A DNA stretch of 64,000 bases from an uncultured Chlamydiae bacterium. GTDB lineage: Bacteria > Chlamydiota > Chlamydiia > Chlamydiales > Parachlamydiaceae. Below the pieces are notes generated by a model. The model was not told where the DNA came from. It saw only the letters and a program-made list of their open reading frames with translations, and ran no database searches. The DNA lies in contig CAVWGN010000001.1 of the NCBI GenBank assembly GCA_963754655.1, positions 224,001-288,000 of the forward strand, written 5' to 3'. Below, in pieces: positions 9,201 to 10,655 of the stretch. Made by a program: the position numbers and the translations under genes. Numbering within the stretch: position 1 is the first letter of the stretch; each line of letters opens with the position of its first letter.

Positions 9201-9757
9201 AGCCTTTAAAAAACGCAGAGCAAGCGATATCTTTGGTCCATCCTTTTGTCCATAAGACCGCTTTTAAAGATTGGGAAGCAGTCATTGCAAAGTTAATTTT
9301 TAATACTCTCAAAGCTCCTTTATCCACTCAGTTTGGAAATTTTTGCCTAGCCGATCTTGAGCCTACGCAGATGTATCGCGAAATGCCATTTGTTTTTCCA
9401 TATAAGAAAGGAAAAGGTGTTGAAGAGATGGAGTTTAAAGAAGGATTGATCAAAGGCGTCATTGATGTCCTATTCACTTACAACGGCTTTTATTATTTAG
9501 TCGATTGGAAGACAAATTGGCTGGGTCCTCAAGTTGAGGCTTATGATGTCTCTTCTTTGCAAATGGCTATGCAAGAGCATGCTTACTTCCTACAGGCAGC
9601 CATTTATACAGAAGCCATCAAGCGCTATTTAAATTTAGTAGAGAAGCGTTCATTTGCAGAATGTTTTGGTGGAGCTTTTTATTTCTTTTTGCGAGGCATT
9701 CAGTCTGGAGGACAAGCAGGAATTTATCATTTTTTTCCTAGTACTCTTTCACAGTAG
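6239..9757 (+). CDS. recB: Exodeoxyribonuclease V beta subunit
   Basis: 1172 aa. LEASAGTGKT Walker A, VVTFTRAA, IIDEFQDTD, VGDPKQSIYSFRQAD, LYVALTRAK, C-terminal nuclease GVIDVLF...VDWKTN. Confidence 0.97.
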   Translation: MKKFKVLDRDLVLHRHYLLEASAGTGKTFSIQNIVVRLLIESQGEKEPLLLQKILVVTFTRAAMRDLKLRIRSNIEQALHYLQSWQIENPLIEQAPDYLKACMEKGEEAVRHARKRLQQALFTFDQAQIFTIHSFCARMLRQFALESDMGLHSLAGDEPLPQSEIMTIIRDFFRTEVRMENYSPSQLEILLREDPHQRKLLKLIQSGYDFPIFPSFRDIYTQFNEKMLILKQSLSLTSEKIIEDFRAQAGAYRNYKNGETKAETLAKVIRFAKLFDQEEWSTQDIDGLIGDSLVWVKALDPTLLKGKPLKEEQLNYPYLTKQLQECLYTMIEESGSFAVLLARMARDCQQLLKRYQREEEKLSPDDVLRKMNSALDRLIFLSKVQAYYQAAIIDEFQDTDPLQWQIFRRLFISDAHPWQGYLYLVGDPKQSIYSFRQADIYTYLAAAQALGDAHCFSLDVNYRSQPHLVQALNMLFASEHLPHFIPLPKKSLYLSYQPVQAATVNQNQPFEDERGAIHFFIADGQAFKRPKLTDLETHVFFPFIAQEIIRLRKQNDLQFRQFAVLVRDRHQALRLAERFDHLSIPYLNQRGTSLADSAAHQALTDLVRAVLHPQDRGAIRTALGSSLMGWTHEEVKKFESMEFVLLFVQHLRICLFDKGFAAFFQNMLQAACKPDGQTVLEQILAKEGGLEFYRDLQQIADIVVDHQYLEWNGPEGIIPFLDQFQIWEQNEDARIKRFQDPTADGVKILTLHFSKGLEFDIVFALGLVNRVGVKDDLIPIELDGQMLLAPLSEDSEEHQRYCEECDAEKMRQLYVALTRAKTQLYIPVALHLPSEKIKWGDASPMDLFLARLWQPAPDSYASIYERIKNYAGKSLLEFLETIGKQHFMTFSIHQEVVDKFPRETHAKAFPILHPPAKVSVSGRPLWMTSFSSLSQHFEYKAAERLALLGISPRDFECALKDEHTLPANSETGLLMHHLLEKLTFKDFKPLKNAEQAISLVHPFVHKTAFKDWEAVIAKLIFNTLKAPLSTQFGNFCLADLEPTQMYREMPFVFPYKKGKGVEEMEFKEGLIKGVIDVLFTYNGFYYLVDWKTNWLGPQVEAYDVSSLQMAMQEHAYFLQAAIYTEAIKRYLNLVEKRSFAECFGGAFYFFLRGIQSGGQAGIYHFFPSTLSQ

Positions 9758-10610
9758 TTTTTGCCTATTGAGGCTGCTTTTAAATCCCTATGCGTTAAGG
9801 TAAGAGATGAGCGTAGGCTGCGCGACGCCTTCAGTCGCCCGCCGCTTCGCTCTGGGCTCTAGGTGAGGGGTTGTGGACCCACCGTTCGGTCGCCCTCCGG
9901 GCTCGGTCACGGTGGGCTAGTAACAGTCGTCCTCCGGACTCTAGCGGCAATGTAGAAGCCATTGAATCCACATTCCTAGACCAGGAAGATAAGTTTTTTG
10001 AATTAGATAAGAGCTCTGTTGTTAGGCCTGAAGGGCCGTCATGTTACAGCCCAGGTCGAAGCGAAGCGGAGGCCTGGGTAAAATAAAAAAGAATCGAGTC
10101 CTGAAAGGACGGCATACTCAAAGGAGTGATTTCGCTTCGCAAGGGAATGGAGGATTTTCTATCTCTACATTAGCTCTAGAAGGATAAAAAAATATCTTGC
10201 TTCTCAAAAAGAACACCAAATATTTGTGGGATTAATTTATGCCGTCCTTTCAGGACTCAATTCTTTTTTTATTTTACCCAGGCCTCCGCTTCGCTTCGAC
10301 CTGGGCTGTAACATGACGGCCCTTTAGGCCTAACGACAGAGCTTTTAACTAATTCAAAAAACTTATTCTCCTGGTCTAGGAATGTGGGATTGAATGTTAG
10401 GTCAGGTATTTGATAATGCCGCTAGAGTCCGGAGGACGACTGATTCTAGCCCACCGTGACCGAGCCCGGAGGGCGACCGAACGGTGGGTCCACAACCCCT
10501 CACCTAGAGCCCAGAGCGAAGTGGCGGGCGACTGAATGCGTCGCGCAGCCTACGCTCATCTCTTACCTTAACGCATAGGGAGTTTAAAACCATCCCAATA
10601 GGCAAAACTA
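9755..10610. repeat. ~855 bp nested inverted repeat (arms ~360 bp) enclosing a transposase remnant
   Basis: 9755-10116 is the imperfect reverse complement of 10238-10610. The arms are concatenated modules also found at 19850-19887, 25649-25914, 39-41 kb, 49476-49647 and 63393-63561. Confidence 0.95.
10128..10235 (+). pseudogene. Internally deleted remnant of an IS200-like Y1 HUH transposase (TnpA/RAYT-type), C-terminal part
   Basis: Hand translation with two frame changes gives DFASQGNGGFSISTLALEG / KKYLASQKEH / KYLWD*, matching the TnpA C-terminal pattern FAWQxGYGAFSVS...KxYIxNQxEHH...YLWD. Confidence 0.65.
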
Positions 10611-10655
10611 ATGTAATGGCGTACTAAGACGCCATTACATTAGTTTTGCCTATTG
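10596..10655. repeat. Short perfect hairpin sharing the outer end motif of the 9755-10610 element
   Basis: caataggcaaaactaatgtaatggcgt-actaag-acgccattacattagttttgcctattg, followed by aggctgcttt as at 9771. Confidence 0.85.

Follow-up and report, generated by a model that had tools for sequence, protein, structure and literature searches.

What lies at the heart of a palindrome that is itself made of palindromes, and how did it come to be there? The question is raised by a locus in a 64,000-nucleotide stretch of DNA, hereafter the window, from an uncultured Chlamydiae bacterium of the Parachlamydiaceae (assembly GCA_963754655.1, contig CAVWGN010000001.1, positions 224,001 to 288,000), in which inverted arms of stacked modules, here called S, P3, M and P2 from the outside in, enclose a short core. 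A first reading of the letters alone (the original prediction) had seen in this core the fossil of an autonomous RAYT-type Y1 transposase that produced the P2 repeats and was later wrapped by other palindrome families. We find that the core is recognisable as a remnant of a Y1 (HUH) tnpA gene, and that core, P2 and M together form a 422-bp unit which is best read as one non-autonomous element, recently spread and inserted into a P3 palindrome. Our best overall explanation, which we consider probable, combines this Y1-derived unit, nested insertion and a DDE transposase as the mover. Plain coordinates are those of the window; G000 denotes the genome that holds it, C1 and C2 contigs of that genome, and L-numbers tnpA loci.

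The core is a remnant of a Y1 transposase gene

The core (10117-10237, + strand, 121 bp) opens with a 5' leader, followed by DFA...Y---QKEH at 10128-10216 and KYLWD* at 10218-10235. The peptides that had been called in shifted frames, DFASQGNGGFSIS, KKYLASQKEH and KYLWD*, were all recovered, spread over three + frames. A Y1_Tnp search of G000 gave 12 matches, 7 of them full length, and the genome holds an intact tnpA, L004 (G000:C1:395750-396202), flanked by P2 arms to the left and right, of which the right one alone has M. Aligned with the L004 gene, the core scores 85 (76 identities, 13 mismatches, 8 gaps), compared with 28 for the best of 200 shuffles and 17 for the IS200-proper tnpA of G000, in keeping with the decayed Y1 transposase that had been proposed. 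Relative to L004 it carries two deletions, one of ~278 bp that removed the start codon and the HUH motif and one of ~68 bp, and the remainder is frameshifted; the catalytic-Tyr motif is kept (YLASQKEH; Tyr codon 10193-10195). An intact tnpA between P2 arms thus exists in G000, as had been anticipated, and others were found in related Chlamydiota metagenome-assembled genomes (MAGs). The arms of L004 differ in their closeness to those of the 422-bp element, the left being decayed (85-86%) and the right 97-98% identical.

The class of the enzyme had been misjudged. The L004 protein (150 aa; YLSSQKEHH, DHIH, WQ) passes the IS200 model NF033573 with 64.4 bits (cut-off 55) and fails the RAYT model NF047646 with 22.6 bits (cut-off 80), and among the 120 matches listed, 113 homologues of 131-199 aa show Y---Q--HH in 109 cases and Y---NP in none. 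Membership of the RAYT/REPIN group is ruled out by the RAYT-model score, the Y---Q--HH motif and the lack of a GTAG foot. The nearest solved structures in the PDB are IS608 TnpA and related IS200-type transposases (E about 1e-13), and the nearest relatives of the transposase lie in Chlamydiota and Parachlamydiaceae MAGs. By its motifs we assign the L004 enzyme to TnpA-Y1 subclass 1.2, on the IS200 side. It shares with that subclass, as described by Quentin, Siguier, Chandler and Fichant (2018, PMC6006769), the motifs DH[IV]H, WQ and Y---Q--HH, a length of ~150 aa (148 in the class), a short C-terminal tail, low copy number and divergent paralogues. G000 has six intact subclass-1.2 genes of five types, 44-49% identical to L004. 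The ratio of nonsynonymous to synonymous substitution rates (dN/dS) of L004 is 0.07 and 0.12 relative to two relatives, and we take the gene to be under purifying selection.

The 422-bp unit is read as a recently spread non-autonomous element

The unit, M+P2+core+P2'+M', occupies 9967-10388. Its outer end on the left is the M extension (9967-10021, + strand; consensus CCCAC..., here TCCAC), followed by the left P2 arm (10022-10116, + strand) with a TTAG foot and hairpins H1 at ~10024-10037, H2 at 10050-10079 and H3 at 10098-10110. Beyond the core come the right P2 arm (10238-10333, - strand; H3 at 10244-10256, H1 and foot at 10318-10333) and the right M extension (10334-10388, - strand) with the terminus ...GTGGG. 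In G000, seven sites hold the full-length core at 97.5-100% identity and an eighth holds 106 nt of it; there are also three core relics of greater age and divergence. Since it is the same deleted core at the seven sites and the truncated eighth, the deletions preceded the spread. Six uninterrupted copies of the unit measure 420-430 bp and are 96.7-99.3% identical, and two further copies are split by insertion sequences (IS). M and P2 accompany the core as a single arm in its copies in G000, and the termini CCCAC...GTGGG are fixed to within 1-2 bases in all two-ended copies. Direct repeats at the exact boundaries of the seven two-ended copies measure 6, 5, 0, 6, 6, 6 and 6 bp, with AT-rich targets; repeats of at least 5 bp occurred by chance in 3 of 84 cross-paired flanks and in 0.2% of random pairs. 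The duplication at the window copy is ATTGAA (9961-9966 and 10389-10394). By these marks, the 422-bp unit is identified as one non-autonomous element that spread recently. In the copy without duplication (G000:C1:960405), the last six bases of the left flank are the reverse complement of the window target at 9961-9966, a correspondence that could be accidental or left by a rearrangement.

One could ask whether these copies arose by transposition at all, or whether host repair or template switching filled breaks with hairpin-forming DNA and so created the short duplications. The variable duplication length (0, 5 or 6 bp) and the very stable hairpin formed by the element would suit such an origin, as would the fact that no mobilising enzyme has been identified. 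Ends fixed to 1-2 bases and a duplication of exactly 6 bp in 5 of the 7 two-ended copies are difficult to reconcile with it; they point to an enzyme with defined cut sites, and we give the repair origin a low probability.

The P2 module is far more abundant than the unit. G000 contains 262 H3 anchors of P2, forming 95 outward and 9 inward pairs, so that the abundant doublets have the orientation opposite to that of the element; their linker also differs. At G000:C1:1345574-1345767, a diverged (83%) copy of the deleted core and an arm of the abundant P2 subtype are joined, and this junction suggests that the common doublets derive from the right ends of a sister element.

The unit was inserted into a P3 palindrome

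The predicted ~360-bp inverted arms of stacked modules are borne out by the arm alignment (9759-10116 with 10238-10607: 339 identities in 357 aligned positions, 14 gaps), as is the recurrence of M at 19851-19886 (92%) and of P2 at 25662-25903 and 39586-41241 (91-93%). The full palindrome extends over 9736-10629 (89.6% identity over 394 columns), and its DNA fold reaches -454 kcal/mol (z = -54). The "P3 shell" said to recur at 49476 and 63393 had to be divided. The copies at 49.5 and 63.4 kb match the outermost shell, 9737-9851, with 80-81% identity and without the inner P3 hairpins, so this shell consists of two layers, S and P3.

The left P3 arm (9826-9945, - strand) is a three-hairpin module with H1 innermost (9929-9945), and the right P3 arm occupies 10421-10540 (+ strand). 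The spacer between them is divided by the 422-bp element into a left part (9946-9966, + strand) ending with the first ATTGAA and a right part (10389-10420, + strand) beginning with the second. In G000, 39 of the 45 forward P3 anchors have a reverse partner, with spacers of 48-50 nt in 16 pairs, 81-84 nt in a variant of 14 pairs and other lengths in 9; among these 39 pairs the window's doublet alone holds the element. Excising 9967-10388 together with one ATTGAA restores a short P3 spacer, 81-91% identical to five empty ones, which indicates that the inner element inserted into P3. A possible empty allele at the window locus was rejected: joints of the form 9967>10409, seen at a low share in one DNA run, had different intervening letters and represent paralogous empty P3 copies.

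These results reverse the order of events first proposed, in which a master autonomous RAYT decayed in place and was then wrapped by M and P3 palindromes. That account does explain why the tnpA remnant lies in its native orientation between P2 arms, and the M extension may, alone among the layers, have been acquired around the P2 unit. Yet an identically deleted core stands at eight sites, one of them truncated, and an intact P2-flanked gene stands elsewhere, which does not fit a fossil of the autonomous source; the enzyme fails the RAYT tests, and the abundant P2 doublets are reversed (95 pairs against 9) with a different linker. Wrapping is equally at odds with M and P2 moving as one arm, with a P3 spacer split by a duplicated target and restored on excision, and with the existence of empty P3 spacers. 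We regard decay in place as very improbable.

The preferred history is nested insertion of a ready-made derivative, and its first four steps are shown by the copies themselves. The ancestor was a TnpA-Y1 subclass-1.2 gene between two inverted ~95-bp three-hairpin P2 arms. Through two internal deletions this gene lost its start codon, its HUH motif and most of its length, and a non-autonomous unit remained. Extended on either side by 55 bp of M, the resulting 422 bp were recently carried to eight sites, where the ends CCCAC...GTGGG are fixed and a 6-bp duplication is usual. One copy entered the spacer of a P3 doublet, apparently a gene-less arm pair of a second subclass-1.2 family. The P3 doublet in turn lies within a CTAG-bounded S shell at the recB stop, which gives the nesting its Russian-doll form. 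The locus shows that such palindromes grow when one hairpin element inserts into another.

The pairing of P3 with this second family, the L007 type, draws on a match between the H3 hairpin of P3 and the inverted arms flanking a subclass-1.2 gene of genome G119 (protein identity 53% to L007 and 40% to L004), and on the P3 doublet found just downstream of L007 in G000. It is suggestive only, because outside this hairpin the match between the G119 arm and P3 is poor. P3 had no Rfam match.

Three-hairpin arms as probable single-stranded DNA ends

A P2 arm has ~95 bp and three hairpins, and TAAG or TTAG precedes H1 in nearly all arms. The best Rfam match of H1 and H2 of the left window arm is RF01687, Acido-Lenti-1, on the - strand (36.4 bits, E 2.4e-6); the right arm scores 33.5 bits, other copies in G000 37.1-38.7 bits, and arms beside related tnpA genes up to 45. 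RF01687 matches 10 of 20 tnpA loci tested, in 4 of them above the cut-off. Matches of the arms to miRNA families were set aside as generic long-hairpin matches, far below their cut-offs.

We surveyed 67 subclass-1.2 loci, of which 51 had full flanks. Inverted arms of at least 50 bp were present at 31 of these 51 genes, in Chlamydiota among others, compared with 0 of 100 control open reading frames (ORFs). This differs from the published description of the subclass, found mostly in Cyanobacteria and Bacteroidetes, as having no REP and generally no terminal structures (PMC6006769), and so do the hundreds of gene-less arm copies and the multiplied deletion derivative seen here. Note that this absence describes the 2018 sample and was not the criterion used for clustering. 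Gene and motif also occur together: among 119 genomes of the order (a count without G000 and without G117, which had no score; at most 46 RNA-search candidates per genome scored), 17 from 12 families had both RF01687 and a subclass-1.2 tnpA, 2 the motif only, 6 the gene only and 94 neither (Fisher p 9e-14, overstated since kin are not independent).

The loops speak for DNA. On the gene strand of upstream arms, 30 of 47 triloops are GNA and 3 of 47 TNC, while GNRA accounts for only 3 of 23 tetraloops (loops of one locus are not independent of each other). GNA mini-hairpins are described as exceptionally stable when made of DNA but far less stable as RNA (PMC13037366), so the GNA triloops favour single-stranded DNA over RNA as the acting form of the arms. 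It is thus very likely, as the fifth step of the proposed history, that the three-hairpin, Acido-Lenti-1-like arms serve as single-stranded-DNA recognition ends of subclass-1.2 TnpA and not as small RNAs. Acido-Lenti-1 was classed among probable non-coding RNAs (Weinberg et al. 2010, PMC2864571) and has been an RNA motif with no assigned function since 2010; a recent preprint (10.64898/2026.02.09.704811) describes its function as little known. H1 and H2 of each P2 arm match the model, with two differences: the motif is here part of an inverted transposase-gene end, and the GNA-triloop strand is the strand opposite to the model. In a literature search that covered few subscription papers, we found no published work that connects subclass 1.2 with flanking arms or with Acido-Lenti-1, nor any that connects Y1 elements with target duplications; a bioRxiv paper that mentions Acido-Lenti-1 (10.64898/2026.10.21.760802) does not contain TnpA, IS200 or RAYT in its accessible text.

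Each of the five subclass-1.2 tnpA types in G000 (L002, L003/L005, L004, L006 and L007) adjoins its own three-hairpin arm family, with no cross-match among the five and rough copy counts of 280 (P2), 95 (P3), 58, 26 and 4 arms. L002 (G000:C1:2939044-2939980) is an intact subclass-1.2 tnpA with arms of ~155-195 bp, each bounded on the outside by a copy of a 13-bp palindromic direct repeat, and is a possible autonomous element with target duplication.

Which enzyme moves the unit

The question of the mover turns on the duplication. Y1 transposons are described as lacking terminal inverted repeats and inserting without duplication (PMC4810608), and the accessible text of the REPIN papers (PMC3116915, PMC3337134) mentions no target-site duplication. 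We compared 40 regions from seven other genomes, 37 of which contained a palindrome. A flanking repeat of at least 6 bp was found at 0 of 11 bare doublets of at most 233 bp (six other genomes) and at 6 of 26 longer palindromes, and in genome G064 the doublets terminate at the TTAG foot of H1. In G000, 69 of 496 palindromic elements have such a repeat compared with 13.6 expected, and the length of the duplication tracks the shell end, not the hairpin module, being 9 bp in two families and 6 bp in the M-ended family. A 1,846-bp IS in G000 has 9-bp duplications in 9 of 10 copies, at the site type of one of the 9-bp shell families. Because the duplication is foreign to known Y1 chemistry and lacking at the 11 bare doublets, a DDE enzyme in trans is the likelier mover, and the shell-dependent duplication length together with the 9-bp IS favours its acting on M ends.

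We consider it reasonably likely, as the sixth and last step, that the 422-bp unit is cut and pasted as a MITE (a miniature transposable element with inverted repeats) by a DDE transposase acting in trans on its M ends, the Y1 unit being cargo. M may be a captured IS end, at first one-sided, as beside the intact L004, and then copied across by arm homogenisation; the cognate autonomous IS sharing M termini may have been lost.

Several observations count against the overall explanation. Among the multi-copy ORFs and three less-characterised DDE-like loci of G000, no transposase gene has M-type ends, and in 72 other genomes of the family the M end is no more frequent than expected by chance (once each in 9 of the 72, no more than in a reversed-pattern control); a single metagenome match to the M end (L050) was rejected as an unrelated tandem repeat. 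The intact tnpA L004 itself carries M. One of the seven two-ended copies lacks the duplication and another has 5 bp only. No empty M-M' element was seen in G000, where M arms lead into three-hairpin modules or are truncated, and M as an independent palindrome family was rejected for want of such a pair. Both window arms score just below the RF01687 gathering score of 37, and long arms are lacking at 20 of the 51 subclass-1.2 genes, including 3 of 5 tested in G000. Finally, no orthologous empty site was found: five relatives have, after recB, DNA of unrelated appearance without such an element, from which the insertion cannot be dated. A search of G000 with the IS1634 model likewise gave no match over the cut-off.

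The same anatomy and history would hold if the mover were the subclass-1.2 Y1 enzyme of the intact L004. With the three-hairpin arms bound on opposite strands, this enzyme would cleave ~55 nt beyond them, and its joining of staggered ends would produce the 6-bp duplication. Its cognate gene is in the genome, with HUH and Tyr motifs intact and the low dN/dS (0.07-0.12) noted above; its right arm, so close to the element's arms, has M; an M-like stretch (81% over 47 nt) lies upstream of tnpA in another chlamydial MAG (L015); and no DDE enzyme with M ends turned up in G000 or the 72 family genomes. Known Y1 transposases, however, make no duplication (PMC4810608), the arms of intact genes elsewhere mostly end at H1 with no evident flanking repeat in the flanks inspected, the bare doublets (0 of 11) show no duplication, and in G000 the duplication length follows the shell end and not the hairpin module. 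We hold this alternative unlikely.

A more far-reaching version, which we think doubtful, would make this a third mode of Y1 mobility: subclass-1.2 enzymes would recognise inverted, three-hairpin, GNA-capped single-stranded ends (Acido-Lenti-1), move elements bounded by terminal inverted repeats with a staggered cut and a 6-bp duplication, and by fold-back perhaps also build symmetrical composite MITEs. If so, the 6-bp staggered cut would be unlike that of any characterised Y1 enzyme, and fold-back building of composite MITEs from neighbouring DNA would account for the nested palindromes that fill G000. If the DDE mover is correct, only its cargo sets the element apart from ordinary MITEs, and what is of lasting value is the pairing of enzyme and ends.

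Relation to known systems

A close comparison is the REPIN/RAYT system, or REPtron (Bertels & Rainey 2011, PMC3116915; PMC3337134), which shares a low-copy Y1 gene between inverted hairpin repeats, many scattered gene-less doublets in both orientations and several enzyme/repeat pairs per genome. The enzyme here is of class 1 (IS200 side) and not class 2 (Y---NP), the arm is a ~95-bp three-hairpin module with a TAAG/TTAG foot where a REP has 20-40 bp and a GT[AG]G foot, and the mobile unit keeps a tnpA scrap, 55-bp extensions and a 6-bp duplication. TIRtrons (TIRYT) likewise comprise tyrosine transposase genes with long terminal inverted repeats, some partly self-complementary and also dispersed (Di Nocera et al. 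2013, PMC3733652), but their examples were placed in subclasses 2.1, 2.2 and 2.5 (PMC6006769), and the accessible text describes neither a target duplication nor a multiplied deletion derivative. By analogy, the P2 arms may work like REPtron or TIRtron ends. IS200/IS605 elements and PATEs (Kapitonov et al. 2016, PMC4810608) share an HUH/Y1 TnpA, hairpin-bearing ends and gene-less derivatives, and are described as having neither terminal inverted repeats nor duplication, whereas here arms of ~150 bp are inverted and 5 of 7 copies have 6 bp; inverted ends and duplication rule out membership of the IS200 PATEs.

As far as can be told from sequence alone, the 422-bp unit behaves like a MITE. Bacterial MITEs are described as at most about 400 bp long and non-coding, with terminal inverted repeats, a target duplication, a stable fold and the need for a transposase in trans (Delihas 2011, PMC3184786), all of which it resembles; it differs in the length of its arms (~150 bp), in a core that comes from a Y1 gene and not from the DDE gene expected for a duplicating element, and in that no cognate IS was found in G000 or the 72 family genomes.

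Subclass 1.2 has so far been described without cognate repeats. G000 offers an intact enzyme under apparent purifying selection, ends that are putatively cognate to it, and a mini-element that has multiplied recently and whose termini and duplications are mapped. With this substrate set one can ask what subclass-1.2 enzymes cut and which chemistry, Y1 or DDE, is responsible for the spread of the repeats.

The outer shell and the neighbourhood

The palindrome is bounded by recB (6239-9757) on one side and an Rhs-repeat gene on the other. Its outer shell starts at a CTAG target (9738-9741), a tetranucleotide that precedes most S ends genome-wide (149 of 208). The left S arm (9742-9825, + strand) has the MITE-like end TACTC... 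and contributes the final codons and stop (9755-9757) to the recB ORF, which runs on into the shell and ends with HFFPSTLSQ*. The right S arm (10541-10628, - strand) has the terminus ...GCGTA followed by a degenerate target, CTAAG (10624-10628), and a truncated extra S end (10629-10666, + strand) forms a 38-bp hairpin with 10585-10622. These CTAG-bounded ends resemble those of IS630- or IS5-type MITEs. The recB of genome G002 has a TAG stop at the equivalent place (window 9738-9757), so the S shell probably inserted at the old recB stop and supplied a new one.

Nesting is not confined to this locus. The window contains another nested stack at 18950-19890 with an M arm at its end, a P2 doublet at 39529-41298 split by an IS256 (Mutator-family) transposase gene (39887-41089), and further palindromic families at 1126-1449 and 56218-56531; genome-wide, 9-bp duplications are seen in a ~320-bp family that shares its ends with 1126-1449. 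Local inverted repeats amount to ~217 kb in G000, roughly 7% of the genome, some of them inside repetitive proteins. Downstream of the palindrome, the region 10860-18690 comprises the Rhs-repeat/DUF6531 gene (1,908 aa) and small ORFs, including two of 180 aa (16568-17110 and 18148-18690), and looks like an Rhs toxin-immunity array. On contig C2, 25877-33913 repeats several ORFs of G000:C1:1172-7005 with at least 90% protein identity, a possible assembly overlap.

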